Shown in pieces: positions 337-32,000 of a stretch of 32,000 bases of DNA (its first letter is position 1; each line of letters begins with the position of its first letter). The notes under the pieces are model-generated. The model was not told where the DNA came from. It did no database searches and was given only the letters and a program-made list of their open reading frames with translations. A program made the translations under genes and the position numbers. Source of the DNA: Mycobacterium sp. PSTR-4-N (GTDB lineage Bacteria; Actinomycetota; Actinomycetes; Mycobacteriales; Mycobacteriaceae); contig NZ_JAKRFN010000007.1 of assembly GCF_022348085.1 (NCBI RefSeq), forward strand, positions 9,943 to 41,942, read 5' to 3'.

Positions 337-1706
337 CCGACGACCGACAGGCCCGGTGGGCGGCCACCGACCGCCTCATGGCCTACATCGACGACCCCGT
401 CGACCAGCGCTCCGACGACGTCGAGGAACAGTTCTCCCCCGCCGACGACAACCCGGCTCCCGCCTGGGACGGCGATGAGGACCGCGACGACGAGCGCGGC
501 TACCGACACAGCGCCGGACAGCCGCCAGCACCCCCGGCCCGAGAGGTCACCCACACGGGCCGCGGGGAGGGTTGGGACGAGGTCCCCACGGACGACTATT
601 ACGCGGGCGCGCCGCAGGGCGACGAATACGACGACCAGGCACCCTACGATCACCTCCGCGAGGATCGTGGAGACGGGTACGGCGACGCCTACCCGGACAC
701 AGCCGAAGCGGTCGAGGTGGGCCACCCCCACCTCGACGACACCGACCGCAGCAGCGGCACGGTCGACGTCTTCGACGACAAGCCCGCCCCCGAGGCCGGC
801 CCCGTCGACCTCGACGACGACGTGACCGCAGGACTCGACACCGACAGCGACGAGGACTCCGCTGAACTCGGTCAGAACATCCAATCTCTCATCCCGCCAG
901 CCCGATTCAGCAAGCCACTCGTCCTGGGTTTCGTGGCCGCCGTCGGGGTCGTGGCCATCGGGGGCGCCGCAGCCATGATCGGCATGCAGTCCAGCAGCCC
1001 GTCCCCGGAGGCCGGCGCACCGTCTGGAACGGTCGGCGTCGTCGCACCGCCCCCCGCGCCGCCGGCCGCCGCGCCCGTCGCCGACCCAGCACAGGATGTG
1101 CCGATTCCCTTCCAGGCGTCCTCGGCCTGCCCCCAGGCCGGATCGGGGTCCGCGCAGAACGTCGCCAGCGAGGACCCCACGCGAGCGTGGGTGTGCATGC
1201 GTGATTCCGACGGGCAGGTGATGACCCTGGATCTGGGCAAGCCAATGAAGGTCACCGCCATCGAGCTGACTCCCGGATGGGTCGGCACCGACGCCAGCGG
1301 CGCCGATCAATGGATGTCGCACCGCGTCGTGACACGCGTGCAATGGATCTTGGTCAACGGCGCCGACCGAACGGTCGTTACCCAGGACACCAAGAACGCT
1401 CACGGGCCCGTGCCGGTCGCGATGCCCTCCAACGGCCCCGACCAAGGTGTACTCGCCTCCCAGATTCAGATGGTCATCCTGCAGACCTCGCGCCCGCCGG
1501 CCGACAACCCCGCCCCCACCGCAGGCGGTCCCGGCCCGGCCGGAGGGGGACTGCTCGACGGCATGCTCGGCGCGCCGGTCGGCGAGGGCACCTCCCCAGA
1601 TGCCAGCCCAGACCCCGTCTTCGGAACCAGCGACACCTCCACCGATCCGGTCGACAACACCGTCGCAATCTCGGCGATCCGCGTCCTCGGCCACCCCCCA
1701 CTGTGA
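333..1706 (+). CDS. Membrane-anchored protein (457 aa): acidic disordered N-terminus, one TM helix, Pro/Ala linker, C-terminal discoidin/F5-8 type C-like domain
   Basis: Same frame as track ORF 120..1706. Start moved to ATG 333 (GGAGA 8 nt upstream, ATGA overlap with the leader ORF); the 120-332 part has low GC3. TM segment: LVLGFVAAVGVVAIGGAAAMIGM. The C-terminal block (EDPTRAWVC...MTLDLGKPMKVTAIELTPGW...VAISAIRVLGH) resembles the pattern of galactose-binding-like/discoidin domains. The domain call is from memory of the motif, not a search. Confidence 0.6.
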   Translation: MTDDRQARWAATDRLMAYIDDPVDQRSDDVEEQFSPADDNPAPAWDGDEDRDDERGYRHSAGQPPAPPAREVTHTGRGEGWDEVPTDDYYAGAPQGDEYDDQAPYDHLREDRGDGYGDAYPDTAEAVEVGHPHLDDTDRSSGTVDVFDDKPAPEAGPVDLDDDVTAGLDTDSDEDSAELGQNIQSLIPPARFSKPLVLGFVAAVGVVAIGGAAAMIGMQSSSPSPEAGAPSGTVGVVAPPPAPPAAAPVADPAQDVPIPFQASSACPQAGSGSAQNVASEDPTRAWVCMRDSDGQVMTLDLGKPMKVTAIELTPGWVGTDASGADQWMSHRVVTRVQWILVNGADRTVVTQDTKNAHGPVPVAMPSNGPDQGVLASQIQMVILQTSRPPADNPAPTAGGPGPAGGGLLDGMLGAPVGEGTSPDASPDPVFGTSDTSTDPVDNTVAISAIRVLGHPPL

Positions 1707-1723
1707 GAAAGGCCCACGACCCC

Positions 1724-2704
1724 ATGACGTCCGCACCGAGCTTGCTAACCAACACGTGGCGCCGCCGCATCGACACCAGCGGTTCCACCCTTCGAAAAGT
1801 GCTGCAAACCATCGCCTTCACTGCCTGCACCATCGTCGCCCTGAGCACGATGTGGGGCTGGATCACCGACGAACCCCTCGACATCGACGGGCCCGCAAGG
1901 GCAGCGGTCAACCGCACCGACTACATCGGCGGATACGCCGTCAACTGCGTGCGTCTCCTGCTGACCGTCACCGAAGCCCAACGCTCGGCGCTGAACACCT
2001 GTTGGGCACCCGACGAACTGCGCTCCCTGCCCACCACCCCACCCGTGGTCGTGGACTCCACCGTCATCGCCAAGATCGTGCGGACCGCCGCCTACGACGG
2101 CGTCGAGCAGTGGCAGGTCATCGTGCGTGTCAGCCAGCGCCCCTATCTCAGCGCCACCCCGGAAACCACGCTGCGCCAGATCAACGTCCTCATCAGCAGC
2201 TACGGCCTTCGCGCCTCCGGACTGCTGGCCACCATCAACGACACCGGCAGCGGCGCAACGCTTCCCCTGGCCTACACCGCCTCGCTGCCCGTCGGCGCCC
2301 CCGACGACAAGGGCCGCAACCGACCCACCGGAAACCCCCTGTCCGACACCGTCACCGGATTCCTGGTCAGCTACCTCACCCCCGCCGGCGGATTGGAACG
2401 TTACGTCAGCGCCGACTCGGGCATCAGCGCCGTCAACACCAGCCAACGGGCGCTGACGACTGCCCTGCTGGCCACCCGCACGGTCGACGCCGCCCAACAG
2501 CCAGCAGATGGCAGCACCGTGCAGGTCCTGGCCACGGTCTCAGAACTCACCAACCGCTACGCCCCCCAAACCGAGCAATACCCCCTGACCCTGACGCTGC
2601 GATCGGGCAGCTGGAGTGTCACCCGCATCGACCCCGGACCTCTGCTCGACGGCACCGCGCAACTGACCCCCGTGGCACCCAGCCCCGGTCAACCCACTCG
2701 ATAA
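1724..2704 (+). CDS. TcpC/ConB (VirB8-like) type conjugal-transfer protein candidate (326 aa), N-terminal TM anchor
   Basis: In-frame internal ATG 1724 of track ORF 1277..2704. The upstream part of that ORF is Arg-rich and overlaps the previous gene. GAGAAAGG lies upstream of the ATG. Translation starts MTSAPSLLTNTWRRRIDTSGSTLRKVLQTIAFTACTIVALSTMWGWI (one TM), followed by about 280 aa of extracytoplasmic sequence. Its position directly upstream of the small-TM/VirB4/VirB6-like genes matches ICEBs1 conB-conD-conE-conG order. Confidence 0.5.
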   Translation: MTSAPSLLTNTWRRRIDTSGSTLRKVLQTIAFTACTIVALSTMWGWITDEPLDIDGPARAAVNRTDYIGGYAVNCVRLLLTVTEAQRSALNTCWAPDELRSLPTTPPVVVDSTVIAKIVRTAAYDGVEQWQVIVRVSQRPYLSATPETTLRQINVLISSYGLRASGLLATINDTGSGATLPLAYTASLPVGAPDDKGRNRPTGNPLSDTVTGFLVSYLTPAGGLERYVSADSGISAVNTSQRALTTALLATRTVDAAQQPADGSTVQVLATVSELTNRYAPQTEQYPLTLTLRSGSWSVTRIDPGPLLDGTAQLTPVAPSPGQPTR

Positions 2705-2731
2705 ACCCACCCCACCAGAAAGAGGATCACC

Positions 2732-3049
2732 ATGAACCACCTGCCCGAATTCACCTCCACCCTCGCAGGACTGCCCGCCGACACCCGCATCGTGGCCGTC
2801 GCCGACCTCGTCCAAGGCACCCAGGGCCTCTACACCATGGGGGTAGCGATCCTGGCGATCCTGTTCCTCATCGCCGGGGGCGCTCGCGGCCTCGCCGCCT
2901 TCGGCGGCGGTCGCATCGGCACGGCGATCGGTTGGGTGGCCGCCGGCATCGTCTGCGCTGTCGTCATCGGCAGCGCCTACGCGATCTACGTCTCGACCAA
3001 ACAGACCGTCGACAGCCACACCGGCGTCACCACCGGGCAGTTCGGCTGA
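2732..3049 (+). CDS. Small 2-TM membrane protein (105 aa), VirB3/ConD-like or TrbC/VirB2-like T4SS component candidate
   Basis: ATG 2732 is preceded by AAGAGGA. Two hydrophobic helices: MGVAILAILFLIAGGA and IGWVAAGIVCAVVIGSAYAIYV. The stop lies 2 nt before the VirB4-like start. The call rests on size, topology and position only. Confidence 0.45.
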   Translation: MNHLPEFTSTLAGLPADTRIVAVADLVQGTQGLYTMGVAILAILFLIAGGARGLAAFGGGRIGTAIGWVAAGIVCAVVIGSAYAIYVSTKQTVDSHTGVTTGQFG

Positions 3050-3051
3050 CC

Positions 3052-5937
3052 ATGACTGACAGCGCACAACTCTTCACCGGGGTCCACGACACCCCCGTCT
3101 ACACCAACGTTCTGTTCGACAAGCCGCTGCGGATCTGGGTGGCCGTGCCCGCCGTCGTCGGATCGGTCACCACCATCCTGTTGGCGGTGCTCAACCTCGC
3201 CTCCGGTCACGCGCTGGCCATCCTCATCTGCGGCGCGCTGCTCACCGCAGCGCTGACAGGAATCGGGGCCCTGGTGCCCCGCACCCGCCCCAACATCGCA
3301 TTCCGGCTGCGCGCGTTCACCGCGTCCGTACGTCCGGCTGTCCGCACCAGCTACGACACGCCAATCCTGGCCCGCCCCAACCTCGTCGACAATCTGTGGT
3401 TTGCCGACAACGGCTCGGTCTTCGCCGGCTTCCTGCTGTCCGGGCTCCCCTACCATCTACAGTCATCGCGCCGAAAGACCGCAGTCGCTGACCTGCACAC
3501 CCTGCTCGGCCGGGAACTGCCCGCGGACAGCTGGCTCTACGGCCTCGGAGTAGACCAAGACCAGCGCCAACTCCTGCGAGCCATGGTGCACGGTCACCGC
3601 GACCGCGACGACTGGCTCTACAGCTGCGCCCAGGTCGCCGACCAGCTCGCCGACGCCGAGCCCAAGACGCGGCTGTACTGGCTCATGGTTCCCGTCGACG
3701 CCGGCCGCGCCGGCCACAACGTCGTGGGCCAGGCCACCAAGCTCAAGGATTGGTTCGCCGGACGCGACAAGGACTCCGACTCCTCGCTGCACGCCTACAT
3801 CGAGCTGGGCCACGACATCGCCAACTCGCTGCCCCCGGAGTTCTCCCCCACGCCGGTCACCGCGGCCATTTCGGCATGGCTCTGGCAGCACACCACCTGG
3901 CTGGGCACCTTCACCGACCCCCTGCCGCGACCGACCGCCGGCGGGTCCATCACCGCCGACCAGCTCCCCGCCGCGGCCTTCGATGAAGGAGACCAGCAGC
4001 ACAAACCCCGCCGACCCAGCATCTTCAACGCGCTGCCCTCATGGAAGAAGTACGTTCGCGTCTCGGCCACAGGGCCGCACAGCGTGATCGCAGCAGACAG
4101 CTATCAGGCCGTGCTGCCCGTGGTCGACGCCCCCGAAGGCGGCATCGTCTTCCCCGGCTCCGAATTCCTCTCCGCACTCGACGATCTCGACACCGGCGCG
4201 GTGTTCGACTTCGCCATCAACCTCACCGCCCGGCCCCGCGAAATGGAGTTCCGCCGCAACGACCGCGCACGCGGCAACATCGACGACCAGTACGACCACC
4301 GCGGCGACGTTCGCAACGGCCTGACCGAATTGCGAGCCACCGAGCGCAAGATCGCCGAATACAACAGGCTGCTGTCGGCCAACATCGACGAGCAACCCCT
4401 CTCGGCCGCCTTCTTCATCCACGTCGGTGCCGCCGACCCCCGCACGCTCGACCACAGCATCAAACGGCTGCGCGAGGAGATGACGCAGTCCGGCCAGATC
4501 GTCATCCGGCACTACCGCGGCGCCAACACCCGATTGTGGTCAGCCTTCAACCCCGGTGTGGCTCAGCACAAGAGCGCCGTCGACCAATTCGCTCACGCCA
4601 CCACCGCCTCCAAGTGGTCACGATTCGTGCCCCTGATTTCCTCGCAGCTCGGCAACGCCACCGGGATGCTGCTCGGCTTTAACAAGAGCAACGCCAATAA
4701 CTCCGCGGTGCTCCTCGACCTACCCGGCACCGCCCGCCGCAACCACAACCCCTGCCTGATCTGCGCCGGGGCACCCGGTTACGGCAAGTCCTACACCTCC
4801 AAGAAGATCGTGCGCGCCGAACTGCAGCGCGGTGCACAAGCATTCATCGTCGAACCCGACGACTATGGCGAATGGGCCACCGCCCTGGCCGACGTCCCCA
4901 ACAAGGCCGTCATCGACATGGCCGGTGGTGACTTCGGCTGCGACGCGCTGCGCATCTTCCCTGAACGTGTCGCCGGCTCCTACTGGCTCGACTACATGAT
5001 CCCCATGCTCGGACTCGACGTACGTAGCGTCGCGGTCGGGCGGCTGCGCACCCTGCTAACCCCCGCCGCCCGCGACGCGCTGGGGCTGAGCAGCACCGCA
5101 GCGCTCATGCGCTACATCCGCGACATCCAAGCCCCCCTCGGCTCCGCCGAAGACACCCGATCACCCCAAGTCGCCCAACTGGCCGAAGATCTTCGTCCCG
5201 TCCTGCTCGCGTTGGAGTCCTGGGCCACCTACGAATTCACCCAAGCCATCTTCGACGACACACTGCCCATCCCCGACCTCGCCGCCCTGGACGTGACGAT
5301 TTGGCAGACCGGCAGCCTCGACCTGCCCGACGCCGACGAAGTCGCCAACCCCCACCTCTACGCCGCCCTCAGCGACCGTCAACGCGCCTCCATCGCCATC
5401 TACGGCATGCTGGTGCGCCTCGCGCGGGTCACCTTCTTCAACAACACCAACCGATTCGGATTGATCGTGCTCGAAGAGGCAGGCCCCCTGCTCAATTCAC
5501 GAACCGGAGCCCGCGACGCACACCTGATCAGCCGCCGCGCCCGCAAGCACTACACCGGCATGCTCATCATCACCCAGAACCCAATCAAGGACCTCGCGCT
5601 CATGGGCGACGAATTCATCACCCAACAGATCATCGTGCCCTTCGAGAAGGAGGGCATCGCGCGAGCCGTCGCCGCCAGCGCGGGACTGCCCCTCGACGAA
5701 TATCCCGAGTTTCAAGACTTCTTCCTGGCCGCCGCCGGAGCCGAGGAGATGCGCGACCCCACGGCATTCGACGACGACCACACCGGACCGTCGACGACCC
5801 CGGACCGCGGCAGCCTGCAAGGACGTGCCTTCTTCATCGACGAGTTCCGCCGCCTGGGTGCGATTCAAATCGCGCGCGAGCCCAACGACATCCTGCACCG
5901 CGCCTACGACACCACACCCGACCAAGGGGCTGCCTGA
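3052..5937 (+). CDS. VirB4/ConE/TcpF-like T4SS ATPase (961 aa) with N-terminal TM hairpin
   Basis: Internal ATG 3052 of track ORF 1447..5937; the first 535 codons of that ORF are Arg/Pro-rich shadow over three other genes. N-terminal helices: IWVAVPAVVGSVTTILLAVLNL and ALAILICGALLTAALTGIGALV. Walker A GAPGYGKSYTSKK. Walker B-like FGLIVLEEAG. Downstream MLIITQNPIKDL (TQ motif). Confidence 0.8.
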   Translation: MTDSAQLFTGVHDTPVYTNVLFDKPLRIWVAVPAVVGSVTTILLAVLNLASGHALAILICGALLTAALTGIGALVPRTRPNIAFRLRAFTASVRPAVRTSYDTPILARPNLVDNLWFADNGSVFAGFLLSGLPYHLQSSRRKTAVADLHTLLGRELPADSWLYGLGVDQDQRQLLRAMVHGHRDRDDWLYSCAQVADQLADAEPKTRLYWLMVPVDAGRAGHNVVGQATKLKDWFAGRDKDSDSSLHAYIELGHDIANSLPPEFSPTPVTAAISAWLWQHTTWLGTFTDPLPRPTAGGSITADQLPAAAFDEGDQQHKPRRPSIFNALPSWKKYVRVSATGPHSVIAADSYQAVLPVVDAPEGGIVFPGSEFLSALDDLDTGAVFDFAINLTARPREMEFRRNDRARGNIDDQYDHRGDVRNGLTELRATERKIAEYNRLLSANIDEQPLSAAFFIHVGAADPRTLDHSIKRLREEMTQSGQIVIRHYRGANTRLWSAFNPGVAQHKSAVDQFAHATTASKWSRFVPLISSQLGNATGMLLGFNKSNANNSAVLLDLPGTARRNHNPCLICAGAPGYGKSYTSKKIVRAELQRGAQAFIVEPDDYGEWATALADVPNKAVIDMAGGDFGCDALRIFPERVAGSYWLDYMIPMLGLDVRSVAVGRLRTLLTPAARDALGLSSTAALMRYIRDIQAPLGSAEDTRSPQVAQLAEDLRPVLLALESWATYEFTQAIFDDTLPIPDLAALDVTIWQTGSLDLPDADEVANPHLYAALSDRQRASIAIYGMLVRLARVTFFNNTNRFGLIVLEEAGPLLNSRTGARDAHLISRRARKHYTGMLIITQNPIKDLALMGDEFITQQIIVPFEKEGIARAVAASAGLPLDEYPEFQDFFLAAAGAEEMRDPTAFDDDHTGPSTTPDRGSLQGRAFFIDEFRRLGAIQIAREPNDILHRAYDTTPDQGAA

Positions 5938-20647: not shown

Positions 20648-20944
20648 TCAGAGCGTTGCGGCGACGTTGAAGGCCTCGGTCGCGGCGTAACTTGCACCGG
20701 AGGTACCCATGGCGCTGGCAAACATCCCATGCCAGGCCGAGGCCATGGCGGCCATGGACTGGTACAGCGAGCCGTGGGTGCCGAAGGCCGCCGAGAGAAG
20801 CATGGCAGTTTCGTTGGCCTGGCCGGGCGCGACTGCGGTCGTGGGCGCTGCGGCGGCAGCGTTTCCGCTGGTGAAGGCAGATGTCAGCGCGGTCAGGGTG
20901 CCGGCTGTGCCACCCATTTCCAACGGATCAGCTGTAAGGAACAT
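20648..20944 (-). CDS. PE family protein (98 aa)
   Basis: ATG 20944 with GAGGGG upstream. Translation MFLTADPLEMGGTAGTLTAL...AAPTTAVAP...SYAATEAFNVAATL. It has PE-domain length and helix pattern and a YxxxE motif (YAATE). It lies directly upstream of ppe. Confidence 0.8.
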   Translation of the reverse strand: MFLTADPLEMGGTAGTLTALTSAFTSGNAAAAAPTTAVAPGQANETAMLLSAAFGTHGSLYQSMAAMASAWHGMFASAMGTSGASYAATEAFNVAATL

Positions 20945-26942: not shown

Positions 26943-27980
26943 TCACGCCACGCGGCGGATCTCCAGGTGCCCTTTGGGCAGCGAACTCAGGTGCACGCGC
27001 TCACCTCGGTTGGGGGCTTCGATCACCATGTCCGGAGACACGGCCATCACGACGTGCTCGGGACGCCCGCGCTGCCAGTTGCACAGAATCAGGTCACCTG
27101 CCCGGATGTCGTCGCGGCTGACGCGGGCACCCGAGTTGACAAGGTCGTAGGTCGTCCGCGGCAACTCGATACCCGCTTGGCGATACGACCACTGCACCAG
27201 CCCGGAACAGTCGAACGCGCTGGGACCGGTCGCGCCCCACACATACGGTGCGCCCTGCCGGGTCTTCGCCGCGGCCACCGCCCGGTTGGCGCGATCACTG
27301 CCGTTGCCGTCGTGCCCGAACAGGCCGGCCGTCAACCGACTCGCGTCTCGGTTGTTTGGGCTGGTGAGGCGGCCGGGAAGGCGGGAGAACATTCCCATGC
27401 CGGGGAAGCCGCCACCGCCGCCGCCCATCCCCATCGAGGGCATCCCGCCGCCCATGCCCGCACCGCCACCCATCCCGCGGAACATGCCCGCCGGGGACGC
27501 CTGGCCGGCCTGGCGGTAGGCCATCGCCATCTGGCGCATCCGGGTCGCGAGCAGCTGATTCTGAGCCTTGGTGGTGTCGAGTTGGCGCTGCATCGCGGCC
27601 ATCCGGTCATCCATGCTGGTCACCAGCGTCCGCACTCCGGCCGGTGACCCCGTTGCCGGTGCGATCGCCGCCGCGGTGCTGGCGGCGCTTTGCCGCACCC
27701 CGGTTGCATTCGCGCGGCCGTTCTGACCCTCGGCCGTCCCGGCACTGGAGGTGCCGTTGGTTTGGGCGTCCAGGGCGCTCACCGCGCCCCAGGTGCGCTT
27801 ATAACCGTCGCCGGCGGTGCTGGCCCCGGTACCCAGTGCTGAGTCGGCAGGAGCGGCCGGGACCCCGGGCCCACCGGTCTGCACAGACCCTGGACCGCCC
27901 GCGGTGGGAAAGACCCCCTGAGCGGCGCCCAACACCCGGTCTACCTGCGCGATATACGCGCCAACACCCGAGCCGCCCAC
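26943..27980 (-). CDS. NlpC/P60 peptidoglycan endopeptidase with helical N-terminal domain and Gly/Met-rich linker (345 aa)
   Basis: GTG 27980 is the first possible start after an in-frame TAG. The C-terminus QGAPYVWGATGPSAFDCSGLVQWSY...GDLILC...PEHVVMAV contains the NlpC/P60 catalytic Cys/His pattern. The N-terminal 190 aa or so are homologous to the adjacent 171-aa protein. Confidence 0.8.
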   Translation of the reverse strand: MGGSGVGAYIAQVDRVLGAAQGVFPTAGGPGSVQTGGPGVPAAPADSALGTGASTAGDGYKRTWGAVSALDAQTNGTSSAGTAEGQNGRANATGVRQSAASTAAAIAPATGSPAGVRTLVTSMDDRMAAMQRQLDTTKAQNQLLATRMRQMAMAYRQAGQASPAGMFRGMGGGAGMGGGMPSMGMGGGGGGFPGMGMFSRLPGRLTSPNNRDASRLTAGLFGHDGNGSDRANRAVAAAKTRQGAPYVWGATGPSAFDCSGLVQWSYRQAGIELPRTTYDLVNSGARVSRDDIRAGDLILCNWQRGRPEHVVMAVSPDMVIEAPNRGERVHLSSLPKGHLEIRRVA

Positions 27981-28045: not shown

Positions 28046-28561
28046 TCAGGCCTGCCGAAGAGCCGCCATCTCCGCACCACGGGCGGTGATCTGCTGGGCC
28101 GACACCTCCAGTTGCTGCCGCGTGTGCCGAATGTGTTCCTGCATCGCCGCCAAGCGGCCGTCCATTTGGCGCACCAGCTGAGTCAGGTCATGTGGCTCCG
28201 GGCGCTCCCCCAGTGCGACTATGGCCTGGGCGCCGGCGGCCCGGGCTATGCCCCGCGCAGTCTCCCCAGCGCGGGTTGCAATCGCCGCGGCATCGCGCAC
28301 CGCCTCCTGGAATGCATCGGACAGCGCCGCAGCCCTGGCGTCGTCGCTGCGATAGCGCGCCGCCGCGTCCTCGGCGGCCGCGGCCATCCCGCTAGCGCCT
28401 TCGGGAACGCCCCCGCCTGCCACCCCCGCCGGGGCGGACAGCGCGGCGGGAGTCGAGGCCCGATCGGGAAACAACGAGACCGCGGTGGCGAGGATGCGAT
28501 CCACCTGCGCCACGTAGTTATCCCCAATGCCCATACCCGCAAGGATATGCGCCGCGATCAT
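28046..28561 (-). CDS. Helical Ala-rich protein (171 aa), paralogue of the N-terminal domain of the NlpC/P60 protein
   Basis: ATG 28561. GIGDNYVAQVDRILATAVSLFP aligns with GVGAYIAQVDRVLGAAQGVFP. LVRQMDGRLAAMQEHIRHTRQQL aligns with LVTSMDDRMAAMQRQLDTTKAQN. Contains YRSDD (YxxxD). Confidence 0.6.
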   Translation of the reverse strand: MIAAHILAGMGIGDNYVAQVDRILATAVSLFPDRASTPAALSAPAGVAGGGVPEGASGMAAAAEDAAARYRSDDARAAALSDAFQEAVRDAAAIATRAGETARGIARAAGAQAIVALGERPEPHDLTQLVRQMDGRLAAMQEHIRHTRQQLEVSAQQITARGAEMAALRQA

Positions 28562-28900: not shown

Positions 28901-30700
28901 TCAGCGGAACAGCACGGAGGCCAGTGACGGGCTGTCGTAAAAAGCCAGCGCCGCGAGCACGAACAGGGTTACCGCCATAGCGACGATGAGGGGCCAGGAC
29001 GTGGTATCGCGTCGCCGCGTCCACAAATAGCCAATGACTGCGATGGCAATCAGGGGCGCCACTTGAGCACCCAGGGCAATGGAATACACCCAACCACCGG
29101 CCAGGAAAGTAGCCACCACACACACCAGGTACAGCCCGAAGGCCGCGAGGATCCCCAGACCGATCAGGCCGGTCATCGACAGGGTGCGCTTCATGACTTC
29201 ATTCGGGTGACCACCGACGACATATCGTGGCAGCGCTTCATACCCTTTGGCCTGCACGACGTGGGTGACGACGTTGTCGATGGAGGGCTGCCAGACCATC
29301 TTGGCCAAAGCGGTGTATCCCAGGCGTTCCGGTGCGGCGAAGGGGCCATCGTCAGAGCCCGGTCCTTCGGTGATATAGCCGCGGATATCGAGGTGCGGGG
29401 TACCTGCTTGTTCGGTCCAGCGGAAGTGGATGGTGCTCCCTGGGCCGTCTTCATGCCCGGGCAAGGTGGCGAACTCGATGTCGATGGCATCAGCGGTGCG
29501 TTGAATCTGAGTGACCTGGACCGGCAGGTTGGCGAGTTGGGCGCCGGCTACCTTCATCTCCAGCGGCAGCTGGTCCCCGACCGCAGGAAACGCCTGGGGC
29601 GCACCGCCAATGGGGAAGTTGCAGTTGAAGCAGCGATGCAGTTCCTTCCACACGTCGTCCAGGGAGACCAGGCTGCCGCCATCGACAACAGTGCCGTCGG
29701 GACCGCGGGCGTGCACTGTGGTGGTGTAGCCGTTGTTGTACTCCCACGGCGCTTTTGGCAGGGGACCCGGCGGGGCCTCTTTGATCGTGGAGTTGTCCAG
29801 GGCTTGCACGGTCTGCGGGGGTGCGGCCGCGGTGTCGGCGACCAGATCCGCAGCGCGGGTCGTGTAGTCGGCGTAGGCAGTGACCGCACGGCTTTGCAGC
29901 GCGGCGAGTTGGGTTTGCAGAGCGGTGATGACCGAGGCGTAGCGGCCGCCGCTGGCGGTGTTGGCTTGGCGGGCAGCGATCAGACGTCGCTCCAGCTCGG
30001 CGAACTCTTCCAGGTGCGGGGTGGCCGCGCGGGTGCTGGTGAATACCTCGGCCTGCTGCGCGCAGATCCGCCCCGTCGCGGCGGCGCAGGCGGCGTGATC
30101 GACGTACCACCGCTCCAGCATGGCCAACCAGGTCTGAGCATTCTGCGCCGCCGGGGACTGCCAACTCCGCGCCAATTGTGAACGACCGGAACGGATATCG
30201 TTGCCGACATTGCGCAACTCGGCAGCGTGCGCGCGAGCGGCGTCGGCGGCCGCGAGCAGTGAGGCGGGGCCAGGTCCACAGTGGATGAGGGCCGCGATGG
30301 ACTTGCCGTCGGTAGGAGTCACCCCCGCCGGCATGGCGGCACCCGTGGGCGCCACCGCGGCAACGAGAGATAACCCCACCCCGGCAGGGGCGGTGGTCGT
30401 GCTGGGTGCTGGGGCGCTTGTCGAGCCCAGGGCGGCTGCGTTGAGCTCTTCCTGGTCGCGGTAGGTCGAAGCGTTGGCGTGCAGTCTGACCGCGGCCGCA
30501 GCGGTGATGGAAGCCGCCTGGGTGCTGTAACCGCTGATGACCGCCAGGCGGGTCGACACGACGCCGGCCACCGTGGCCGACACCTGATCCGCCGCCGCGG
30601 CCGCCACGGTCACACCGCTCAGCGCGTGCGGCGTGCTCACCGATCGGGTGATCGTGGCGGCTGCGCCGTGCAGCTCGTCGCCCTCAACGTACAGACCCAC
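28901..30700 (-). CDS. PE-PPE single-chain fusion (EspB-like N-terminus), unknown globular domain, 3 C-terminal TM helices (about 599 aa)
   Basis: The track start 30790 is a TTG. I prefer GTG 30700, which has GAGGGG and a 6-nt spacer. PE-like part: AAAADQVSATVAG...STYRDQEELNAAALG (YxxxE). PPE-like part: HCGPGPASLLAAADAARAHAAEL...SWQSPAAQNAQTWL. Middle domain: WEYNNGY...FATLPGHEDGPGSTIHFRW. TM helices: GLIGLGILAAFGLYLVCVVATFL, VYSIALGAQVAPLIAIAVIGYLW and WPLIVAMAVTLFVLAALAF. Confidence 0.65.
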   Translation of the reverse strand: MGLYVEGDELHGAAATITRSVSTPHALSGVTVAAAAADQVSATVAGVVSTRLAVISGYSTQAASITAAAAVRLHANASTYRDQEELNAAALGSTSAPAPSTTTAPAGVGLSLVAAVAPTGAAMPAGVTPTDGKSIAALIHCGPGPASLLAAADAARAHAAELRNVGNDIRSGRSQLARSWQSPAAQNAQTWLAMLERWYVDHAACAAATGRICAQQAEVFTSTRAATPHLEEFAELERRLIAARQANTASGGRYASVITALQTQLAALQSRAVTAYADYTTRAADLVADTAAAPPQTVQALDNSTIKEAPPGPLPKAPWEYNNGYTTTVHARGPDGTVVDGGSLVSLDDVWKELHRCFNCNFPIGGAPQAFPAVGDQLPLEMKVAGAQLANLPVQVTQIQRTADAIDIEFATLPGHEDGPGSTIHFRWTEQAGTPHLDIRGYITEGPGSDDGPFAAPERLGYTALAKMVWQPSIDNVVTHVVQAKGYEALPRYVVGGHPNEVMKRTLSMTGLIGLGILAAFGLYLVCVVATFLAGGWVYSIALGAQVAPLIAIAVIGYLWTRRRDTTSWPLIVAMAVTLFVLAALAFYDSPSLASVLFR

Positions 30701-31173
30701 CAGCACCCCCTCAGCTGAGTCGCAGGACTTCAGTATGCCGCCGCACCACCGCGCAGCAACCACAAACCCGCGCGCAGTCCGATAGGTCAATGGTGTTGGC
30801 GATGTCGGCGGTGACCGTTACCCGTTGGCCTACGACCGCGATGTTCCGCCGCCAACTATCCCTACGGGGATCGTGCGCGTTCCGACTTCATTAGTCGTGA
30901 TCCCCGACGCCTAGTCCGTTGCCGACGCGTACGGGTCATCGAGCTTTGCTAGGCCCGGGAAGAGATCGTTGAGAGCTCGGGTACGTCCAAATCGACTGCC
31001 GCGGAGCGGAACTGCTGTTTCAAATCATCACCGAATGTGAGGAACGCGCCTCGGTGGCGAATCGCGACCAAGCTGCCGTTCATCGAATTGGGCACCGTGT
31101 TCCCCGACCCGCGCCTGGTCGCTGCGATCGTCGACAGGGTCCGAGCCGCACCGCTTGCTGCAATGCTCGGGTT

Positions 31174-32000
31174 ATGACCTACGACCAAAACATCGACGTC
31201 TACGAGCACGGCATCGTCGTGTCAGACGGGGAACGTCCGCCTTCCGGCCTTTCGCTCATCGCAACGACTCGCCAGCCGATCTACAACTCCTACTCGCTTA
31301 CGCTCGTCGACCGCGACGGAACATCCCTTAATCACCGAGCGGTTCACGCGCTCGACGTACCGGGGGCGCACGCTGTCGTCGACTATCACGAGGAGAGTGA
31401 TGCTCGATTCTTCCTGCGCGAGTCGCTCTACCACCTCAACAACGTGATCGATAAATACATTTGGGCATGTCAGCTCTTTGAAGAGCTCCATGGCCATTAC
31501 GAGGGGCCGCGGAGCGGAAATACCGGTGACTCACGGGTGCTATTCGAGATTGACGCCTACCTCGGCGCCGCACGTCGCGTATACGAGGCGATCTCCAAGG
31601 TGCTCTGGAAGCACTACCACCCGGGCGAGAAAGGTCGTTGGGACTCAATACGCACCGCCACGAGAGCGATTGCATCAGGAAACTCGAAGGTGCCGGCCCA
31701 GCTCGGCGGCCAAATCGTCGACAGCTGGAACGCCTACGGCGCCAAACTCGCGGACTATCGAAATTTCGTCGCCCACACCGGCGCCTTGTCCGAGGGTGAA
31801 ACCTGCTGGTTGCACCGTTACGACAGACGGTGGGGCGCATCGGTCATGCTGCTTGAAAACCCCGAAAACAAGAAGCGGGTGCCGTTAAGGCCCGATGTGG
31901 GAATAGATGCACTCGCATACTGCTATGAGGTGGCAATCCACCTGGTAAAGCTGTGCGAACAGGTGGCGGCCACTGATGCCGTCGCCGACTATCTTGCGAA
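31174..32000 (+). CDS. Hypothetical protein with HEPN-type RNxxxH motif, 3'-truncated by window end (more than 275 aa)
   Basis: Hand-translated frame 1 is open from the in-frame stop at 30970-30972 to the window end, and the first ATG is at 31174. Translation: MTYDQNIDVYEHGIVVSDGERPPSGLSLIATTRQPIYNSYSLTLVDRDG...YLGAARRVYEAISKVLWKHY...AKLADYRNFVAHTGALSEG...IDALAYCYEVAIHLVKLCEQ. The RNFVAH motif is at 31759-31776. The ORF track lacks it because no stop falls inside the window. Weak RBS. Confidence 0.5.
   Translation, partial: MTYDQNIDVYEHGIVVSDGERPPSGLSLIATTRQPIYNSYSLTLVDRDGTSLNHRAVHALDVPGAHAVVDYHEESDARFFLRESLYHLNNVIDKYIWACQLFEELHGHYEGPRSGNTGDSRVLFEIDAYLGAARRVYEAISKVLWKHYHPGEKGRWDSIRTATRAIASGNSKVPAQLGGQIVDSWNAYGAKLADYRNFVAHTGALSEGETCWLHRYDRRWGASVMLLENPENKKRVPLRPDVGIDALAYCYEVAIHLVKLCEQVAATDAVADYLA

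Follow-up and report, generated by a model that had tools for sequence, protein, structure and literature searches.

The stretch analysed here (hereafter the window) comprises 32,000 nucleotides (nt) of Mycobacterium sp. PSTR-4-N (contig NZ_JAKRFN010000007.1, positions 9,943 to 41,942). It contains a minus-strand gene that encodes an EspB-like single-chain PE-PPE domain, a variable C-terminal domain and, at its 3′ end, a three-helix membrane protein that is a separate gene in all relatives. The 599-amino-acid (aa) four-part open reading frame (ORF) at 28901-30700 was confirmed in the ORF list; all sequence strings cited in an earlier description of this DNA (the sequence-only reading) were found where expected, and the four parts share one minus-strand ORF. 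The domain matches far exceed what chance would give. The mechanical ORF extends over 28901-30790, with a TTG start and a 629-aa translation; the likely start is the GTG at 30700, which has GAGGGGG 5 nt ahead of it and yields the 599-aa product. An alternative GTG at 30706 (601 aa, as in one NCBI record) directly abuts the G-run, and the GTG at 30700 was preferred. The 599-aa product is 100% identical to NCBI WP_241204897.1, annotated as a "PPE domain-containing protein" of Mycobacterium sp. PSTR-4-N and encoded on a 247.8-kb contig, and the protein is present in a Logan assembly as well. A promoter and terminator scan was uninformative.

In the N-terminal 300 aa (the carrier), the Pfam PPE family (PF00823) is matched with 50.3 bits against a cut-off of 26 (E = 3.6 × 10−13, profile positions 11-162 of 165) and the PE family (PF00934) with 21.2 bits against a cut-off of 22 (E = 3.5 × 10−4); eight sibling proteins exceed the PE cut-off, with 22.8-32.4 bits. 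After helix 2 lies YRDQE, a YxxxD/E export motif in which Y, Q and E are nearly invariant across 22 homologues. The canonical PE at 20648-20944, to which the sequence-only reading had likened this part, does end in YAATEAFNVAATL. That reading had also placed WQSPAA where PPE proteins carry WxG; GPGPASLL and WQSPAA are both present in the segment that matches Pfam PPE. The canonical WxG of the PPE family is replaced by W-Q-S, of which W and S are invariant in the 22 relatives.

Comparison with PDB sequences gave M. marinum EspB as the top match (E = 3 × 10−4), in an alignment that spans both halves of the carrier and pairs YRDQE with the YxxxE of EspB and WQS with its W-E-G. The EspB PPE family itself (PF21856, EspB_PPE) scored 14.6 bits, below its cut-off of 27.7. 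An AlphaFold model of the carrier, based on the 22 homologues, reached a predicted local distance difference test (pLDDT) score of 81.6, with disorder confined to the Pro/Thr/Ala linker. When this model was used in a fold search, the 11 best PDB matches were all EspB (target-normalised template-modelling (TM) score 0.65-0.82, about 295-316 columns), and PPE41, PPE15 and PPE4 from PE-PPE heterodimers ranked next. In the model, the PE-like and PPE-like parts fold within one chain as a single elongated helical bundle, the feature whose absence the sequence-only reading had named as fatal to its proposal. The N-terminus, as modelled, is an EspB-like single-chain PE-PPE domain, and Pfam, the EspB sequence match, AlphaFold and the fold search all bear out what had been proposed for it. 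EspB has so far been viewed as the sole fused PE-PPE substrate. The family of carriers is rare, with 6 loci in 185,579 species-representative genomes, every one of them in Mycolicibacterium or actinobacterial metagenome-assembled genomes (MAGs), and with two plasmids in PLSDB.

The C-domain of EspK is the chaperone of EspB. Two sibling loci share a conserved neighbour of 282 aa (L007:5909-6757 and L008:1069-1917, 82% identical). An EspK-like chaperone beside the gene was considered and rejected: weak precomputed EspK_C matches at these two loci were not reproduced by hmmscan, and the gene adjoining the module on the window plasmid is unrelated to the 282-aa neighbour.

The three hydrophobic helices reported for the extreme C-terminus are present; their interpretation as an anchor belonging to the protein did not hold. 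A 264-kb MOBF plasmid of Mycolicibacterium rufum JCM 16372 matches the window at 98.9% identity, and its corresponding region comprises two coding sequences (CDS), one for a 500-aa PPE-domain protein (gene 1, the effector gene) and one for a 97-aa hypothetical protein (gene 2). The window and M. rufum genes are 99.7% identical, with 6 differences in 1890 bases. At codon 529 M. rufum has TAG and the window CCG; at codon 503 M. rufum has TAC (Tyr) and the window TCC (Ser). Two near-identical alleles from other samples (P0238 and P0239) end in ...VVGGH and carry Tyr, all more distant domain homologues terminate at GGH or GGR, and loci that have lost most of the effector gene (see below) likewise have a stop at the effector end. 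A separate three-helix gene of 97-102 aa follows the effector gene in M. vanbaalenii (1-nt gap, out of frame), in M. wolinskyi (9 nt after it), in Mycobacterium sp. MFM001 (overlapping it) and on a metagenome contig, so that all six loci where the domain copy is of the type VII type have such a gene directly downstream. The tail's homologues in databases are without exception small stand-alone proteins; a Pfam search with the membrane protein gave nothing meaningful.

The TAG-to-CCG change removes the effector stop, and the 9-nt spacer between that position and the small gene is in frame; the two genes are therefore read as one 599-aa protein. From the alleles compared, the single ORF appears to be the product of a natural, strain-specific stop-codon loss across an in-frame spacer, with no frameshift. 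The sequence-only reading had foreseen that homologues might reveal a fusion of separate genes, through frameshift or sequencing error; for the membrane part they do, through loss of a stop instead of a frameshift. The immunity-like downstream gene that it had suggested seeking in homologous loci turns out to be the membrane tail itself. An error of sequencing or assembly in the PSTR-4-N genome, with the true sequence retaining the stop, would account for a fusion seen in one strain only, but we regard it as very improbable: two adjacent substitutions (TA to CC) are involved and no indel, four further differences separate this allele from that of M. rufum, as expected of a truly distinct strain, and the protein is found in NCBI, ENA and the Logan assembly, though possibly from the same reads.

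The positions of these features, together with those of the C-terminal domain, are collected in Table 1.

Table 1. Coordinates in the window of the fused gene and its parts
Feature	Position	Strand	Evidence
599-aa ORF: effector gene read through into small membrane-protein gene	28901..30700	-	ORF list, GTG start, NCBI identity
PE-like helix pair of the single-chain carrier	30425..30700	-	Pfam PE, homologue alignment, EspB alignment
YRDQE (YxxxE export motif)	30449-30463	-	Y and E nearly invariant in 22 homologues
Pro/Thr/Ala-rich flexible linker	30311..30424	-	Variable in alignment; pLDDT <50 at model residues 95-120
PPE-like helical domain, including GPGPASLL	29837..30295	-	Pfam PPE (E = 3.6 × 10−13); fold search
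WQS (W-x-S replacing WxG)	30155-30163	-	W and S invariant in the family
Junction PPQTVQALD between carrier and variable C-terminal domain	29795..29821	-	Conserved before every C-terminal type
C-terminal effector domain, 194 aa, unnamed actinobacterial family	29207..29788	-	Residues 335-528 of the 629-aa translation
TCC (Ser); TAC (Tyr) in all close alleles	29282..29284	-	Derived change, long C-terminal helix
CCG (Pro) at the position of the effector stop codon	29204..29206	-	TAG in M. rufum JCM 16372 plasmid NZ_CP092428.2
Three-helix membrane protein, 97 aa from ATG 29194, candidate immunity protein	28901..29194	-	Separate CDS in JCM 16372
Transmembrane helices 1, 2 and 3 of the membrane-protein tail	29096-29173, 29021-29089, 28934-28999	-	Hydropathy

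Hydropathy and charge predict that the N-terminus and the RRRD loop of the small protein are cytoplasmic and that its conserved DSPS..F[RH] tail lies outside (N-in, C-out). The positive-inside rule places the start of the tail in the cytoplasm, and the fusion would therefore hold the effector at the cytoplasmic face. This bears on the possibility of a purposeful 599-aa polypeptide, anchored in the membrane by its three C-terminal helices as an envelope-inserted part of the secretion or transfer apparatus. The uninterrupted ORF in both the PSTR-4-N and Logan assemblies, the single protein in the NCBI annotation and the in-frame spacer would all suit such a polypeptide. We nevertheless consider it quite unlikely, given that the fusion occurs in only one strain among four near-identical alleles, that all homologues have an effector stop and a separately initiated small gene, that the two genes are out of frame in M. 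vanbaalenii and overlapping in Mycobacterium sp. MFM001, and that the predicted topology would keep the effector tethered at the cytoplasmic face and not display it. A non-conservative substitution in the domain core is a further mark of this allele: Ser at codon 503 is unique to the window, and F, Y or L is found there in 44 of 45 diverse family members. No support was found for the outer-envelope-inserted component that the sequence-only reading had entertained. With its stop lost and Tyr changed to Ser at a conserved core position, the window allele is therefore most likely disabled, and we infer from these two changes that it is probably a decaying copy of the effector.

The C-terminal domain matched no Pfam family, and the whole protein matched no NCBIfam family. 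Its region of some 185 non-repetitive residues with a Cys pair, as first described, was found as about 190 aa containing HRCFNCNFP and LPGHEDGPGSTIHF. An exhaustive HMMER search delimited a family of 197 representative clusters at E ≤ 1 × 10−3, spread across Actinobacteria, all annotated as hypothetical and sharing the signature CFNCxFPxxGAP ... GHxDGxGS ... W. The AlphaFold model of the domain (pLDDT 87, predicted TM score 0.81) consists, in order, of strands, two short helices, a six-stranded sheet and a long C-terminal helix. Foldseek returned 139 PDB matches at E ≤ 1 × 10−3 (probability 1.0, TM score 0.4-0.55), and among the matches it listed all were of the Bet v 1, PYR/PYL, CoxG, MLP or polyketide-cyclase type; the domain is accordingly predicted to have a Bet v 1/START-like (SRPBCC helix-grip) fold, with moderate similarity. 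A profile of 45 diverse domain sequences gave chance matches only when compared with PDB sequences. When these 45 sequences were scanned singly against Pfam, DUF1990 (PF09348) was the sole recurring family (7 of 45, best E = 3 × 10−5), and one sequence matched Polyketide_cyc2; the window domain itself had no match to DUF1990 at E ≤ 1. The sequence-only reading had loosely likened the domain to DUF1990-type proteins and proposed a Pfam check, which assigned no family and reached DUF1990 only through weak matches in relatives. The likeness thus stands as remote homology, consistent with the Bet v 1-like model, and falls as family membership: the domain is a remote relative, not a member, of DUF1990.

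Alignment of 22 proteins that share the PE-PPE carrier shows that they diverge behind it into at least five unrelated C-terminal types, and the junction PPxTV[QH]A[LV]D precedes every C-terminal type on these carriers. A similar VQA[LV]D junction precedes the same cargo on WXG100-like carriers. Besides the window protein, the junction motif was noted in P0004-P0010, L015, L017 and L019; it may mark a hinge for recombination or a site of processing. Conversely, the C-terminal domain of the window protein also occurs behind other N-termini, namely WXG100-like (about 190 aa), DUF4226, WXG100 plus EspC-like, and pretoxin HINT (PT-HINT). The three carrier siblings that were checked (L007, L008 and L009) come from plasmid-like contigs that encode a TrwC relaxase or eccB/eccC, and each has a different gene directly downstream, one of which is weakly LpqN-like. 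In two comparisons, the membrane protein diverged faster than the domain it accompanies (57% vs. 79% identity, and 45% vs. 69%).

Several other copies were noted. M. avium plasmid p1-JPH1 (L002:3073-3890) carries DUF4226 together with a fragment of the domain (residues 34-125), split over two CDS; no membrane gene follows the fragment, and the locus resembles a decayed copy. Distant carriers in an actinobacterial MAG (L018) and in Mycolicibacterium sp. J2 (L019) have Pro/Trp-rich repeat C-termini like ELVPGSGxWVP. A PD-(D/E)xK nuclease motif was suspected in two siblings (P0028 and P0033); only proline-rich compositional matches were obtained in Pfam and PDB, and the suspicion is unsupported.

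At other loci the membrane gene persists alone. On contigs of the M. obuense group (L020-L023) it is intact, and only the last 12-30 effector codons are left in front of it (...YEALPRYVVGGH-stop); in one of these (L022), the effector remnant stands directly after an IS3 transposase. On M. hodleri chromosomes (L024-L026) the remnant is reduced to GGH-stop, and the intact membrane gene lies between unrelated metabolic genes. Retention of the membrane gene after decay of the effector is the behaviour of an antidote, unlike that of an obligate anchor or receptor, and these orphan genes are, on comparison of the loci, the strongest point for a candidate effector-immunity module. Three features by which polymorphic toxins are recognised are found here: swappable C-termini, a cargo-specific downstream gene, and orphan immunity candidates with effector remnants. 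Taken with the orphan loci, the lost stop and the Ser change suggest a disarmed state for the window allele, on a common path from toxin plus antidote to antidote alone.

The genes around the module are those of a secretion locus, with eccA, eccE, mycP, eccD, a ParA-like gene, espG, PPE, PE, eccC and eccB on the same strand. The window is a plasmid type VII secretion locus of the ESX-P/ESX-2-like kind, not ESX-1; the gene order, with eccA last and type IV-like genes, is presumably that of the ESX-P/ESX-2 class of conjugative plasmids. At the opposite end of the window, a 1496-aa ORF with a VirB4/TraC-like AAA_10 ATPase domain (1447-5937, plus strand) is a sign of the type IV-like transfer genes of such plasmids. 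The module and eccB are separated by the genes for a 171-aa Ala-rich helical protein without a family (28046-28561, minus strand) and a C40/NlpC-P60 peptidase with a long N-terminal extension (26943-27980, minus strand). Just past the end of the window, the M. rufum plasmid encodes an 823-aa hypothetical protein with a weak WXG100-like domain (L001:470-2941, E = 7 × 10−4), which by this match may be another large type VII substrate on that plasmid. Small upstream ORFs at 30949-31497 were considered as partner genes and rejected; they belong to no family and are unannotated in the reference plasmid.

On this evidence, our preferred interpretation, to which we assign a probability of about 0.6, is that the locus derives from a two-gene module, borne on the plasmid beside the ESX genes and consisting of a polymorphic type VII effector and its cognate immunity protein. 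Modularity, gene pairing and the orphan membrane genes make a secreted effector or toxin the best reading of the protein. The earlier interpretation thus survives in its PE-PPE fold, its effector reading and its remote link to DUF1990, and not in its transmembrane anchor or its outer-envelope component. In the module as we picture it, the EspB-like bundle of gene 1, with YxxxE and W-x-S, would serve as the export handle for the plasmid ESX system. A flexible hinge ending in PPxTVQALD would then lead into the swappable 190-aa domain, predicted to be Bet v 1/START-like and DUF1990-related, whose site of action would be the membrane or envelope of a target cell, where it might, for instance, bind a lipid or disturb the bilayer. 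Gene 2, a putative inner-membrane protein of 97 aa with three helices, would protect the producer and its kin. In the PSTR-4-N allele, in which the TAG-to-CCG change fuses the genes and which we infer to have lost its function, the membrane protein would be supplied as a fused tail or from the internal ATG.

Several observations weigh against this interpretation. The C-terminal domain and the sibling C-termini match no named toxin family in Pfam or PDB sequences, and the similarity to Bet v 1-type folds, as judged from the model, is only moderate (TM score 0.4-0.55). The Pro/Trp-rich C-termini of some siblings have the look of repeats for binding or adhesion and not of enzymes. In Streptomyces and Microbacterium, many relatives of the domain are proteins with a Sec signal, in housekeeping-looking contexts and without the small membrane gene; either the fold is therefore not in itself toxic to its producer from outside, or it serves other purposes. 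In a few relatives the domain is joined to a CHAP, NlpC/P60 or peptidoglycan-binding domain, an arrangement as compatible with envelope remodelling as with attack. A general module for binding lipids or the envelope may have been recruited as cargo, and the fused 599-aa protein could still be functional somehow.

Several of these points would be expected if the effector were non-toxic, that is, if a lipid-binding domain exported by ESX-P aided conjugation or envelope remodelling (mating-pair formation, entry exclusion), with the small membrane protein as a receptor, anchor or exclusion factor and not an antidote. The Sec-secreted relatives have no adjacent protective gene, the fusions to CHAP, NlpC/P60 and peptidoglycan-binding domains point to the envelope, and Bet v 1-like folds typically bind ligands. 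The gene is also placed between the ESX and type IV-like transfer genes, adjoining the C40 peptidase, on a plasmid of a kind that requires both type IV and type VII systems for conjugation (PMC4173767, PMC4779608). However, the pair of domain and membrane gene is also found in chromosomal or prophage-like settings, behind WXG100-type N-termini and away from transfer genes, a layout that is that of described mycobacterial toxin-immunity cassettes (PMC8092301). Moreover, one relative stands behind a pretoxin HINT domain, and membrane genes that outlast the effector are hard to explain for an obligate partner. We therefore judge a non-toxic role unlikely and retain the effector-immunity module as the preferred interpretation.

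A bolder form of the effector-immunity interpretation is offered tentatively, as more doubtful than credible at present: environmental mycobacterial plasmids would deliver EspB-like PE-PPE polymorphic toxins through ESX-P against other bacteria, and the cassette described here would attack membranes by means of its START/DUF1990-like domain and be blocked by the 97-aa protein. Bacterial antagonism is established for the type VII systems of Bacillota; in the literature, we found no report of antagonism by mycobacterial type VII systems. If true, no interbacterial toxin system would have been linked to actinobacterial (type VIIa) secretion before, the toxin fold would form a new class, and the loss of a stop codon that fuses toxin to immunity protein would be one natural route of disarmament. 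Irrespective of that proposal, the analysis describes a family of single-chain PE-PPE carriers on ESX plasmids of environmental mycobacteria, whose cargo differs by member, and defines an unnamed actinobacterial family of secreted domains, for which the fold is predicted with confidence and a membrane protein is the candidate antidote. It also provides a natural allele series, comprising the intact two-gene form, the fused and mutated form and the orphan antidotes, and a testable link from plasmid ESX systems, so far tied to conjugation only, to effector delivery and possibly to bacterial antagonism.

Among known systems, EspB (Rv3881c, an ESX-1 substrate; PDB 4XXX, 4WJ1, 7P0Z) is the best match by both sequence and structure. 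It likewise combines a PE-like helix pair, a linker and a PPE-like domain in one chain, with YxxxE and W-x-[G/S] motifs at almost the same positions as in the window protein. The two differ in that identity is about 16-17%, the window carrier has WxS where EspB has WxG, the window gene lies beside an ESX-P/ESX-2-like plasmid system whereas EspB belongs with ESX-1, and a low-complexity tail in EspB takes the place of the folded, swappable C-terminal domain. A remote named relative of that C-terminal domain is DUF1990, whose one studied member, the chloroplast protein Oep23, was shown to form an ion channel in bilayers (PMC4331141). Such channel activity would suit an effector that acts on membranes. 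The window domain, with its CFNCxFP and GHxDGxGS signature, belongs to a separate unnamed family, however, and function is not confidently transferable between the two.

In organisation there is a likeness to the polymorphic toxin-immunity cassettes with WXG100 N-termini that are carried by mycobacterial prophages (Dedrick et al. 2021, PMC8092301). Both combine an N-terminus of the type VII kind with a variable C-terminus and with a downstream gene specific to that C-terminus. The window-type C-terminal domain and its membrane gene also occur behind WXG100-like N-termini, and one sibling of the window carrier has an LpqN-like downstream gene, as in the cassettes of M. abscessus prophages, for which LpqN-like immunity proteins were described (PMC8092301). 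In contrast to these cassettes, the window carrier is a single-chain PE-PPE protein, for which no separate small WXG100 partner gene is expected, and the module stands at a plasmid ESX locus and not at a prophage end; a search of a phage collection with the domain and the membrane protein gave no match.

Further parallels are found in the LXG toxins of type VIIb systems, such as TspA/TsaI of Staphylococcus aureus (PMC7456083, PMC10765036), which have a helical N-terminal export domain, a polymorphic C-terminus and an adjacent immunity gene, and among which membrane-acting toxins have membrane proteins as immunity partners. They belong to another phylum and secretion subtype, have no sequence relationship to the window protein, and differ from it in that its C-terminal fold is predicted to be β-rich and Bet v 1-like and not a helical or glycine-zipper channel former. 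In CpnT/TNT of M. tuberculosis with its immunity factor IFT (PMC8092274), the N-terminal domain and the toxin fold are unrelated to those of the window protein, and IFT is a soluble cytoplasmic protein, whereas the candidate immunity protein of the window is a membrane protein. Among the trafficking domains of polymorphic toxins, PPE has already been listed as one of the type VII kind (PMC3482391); our literature search found no paper on single-chain PE-PPE carriers with polymorphic cargo, on the window C-terminal domain or on its membrane partner. The module is thus best classed within a known kind, the polymorphic type VII effectors, where its carrier is unusual, its cargo fold unnamed and its candidate antidote a membrane protein.

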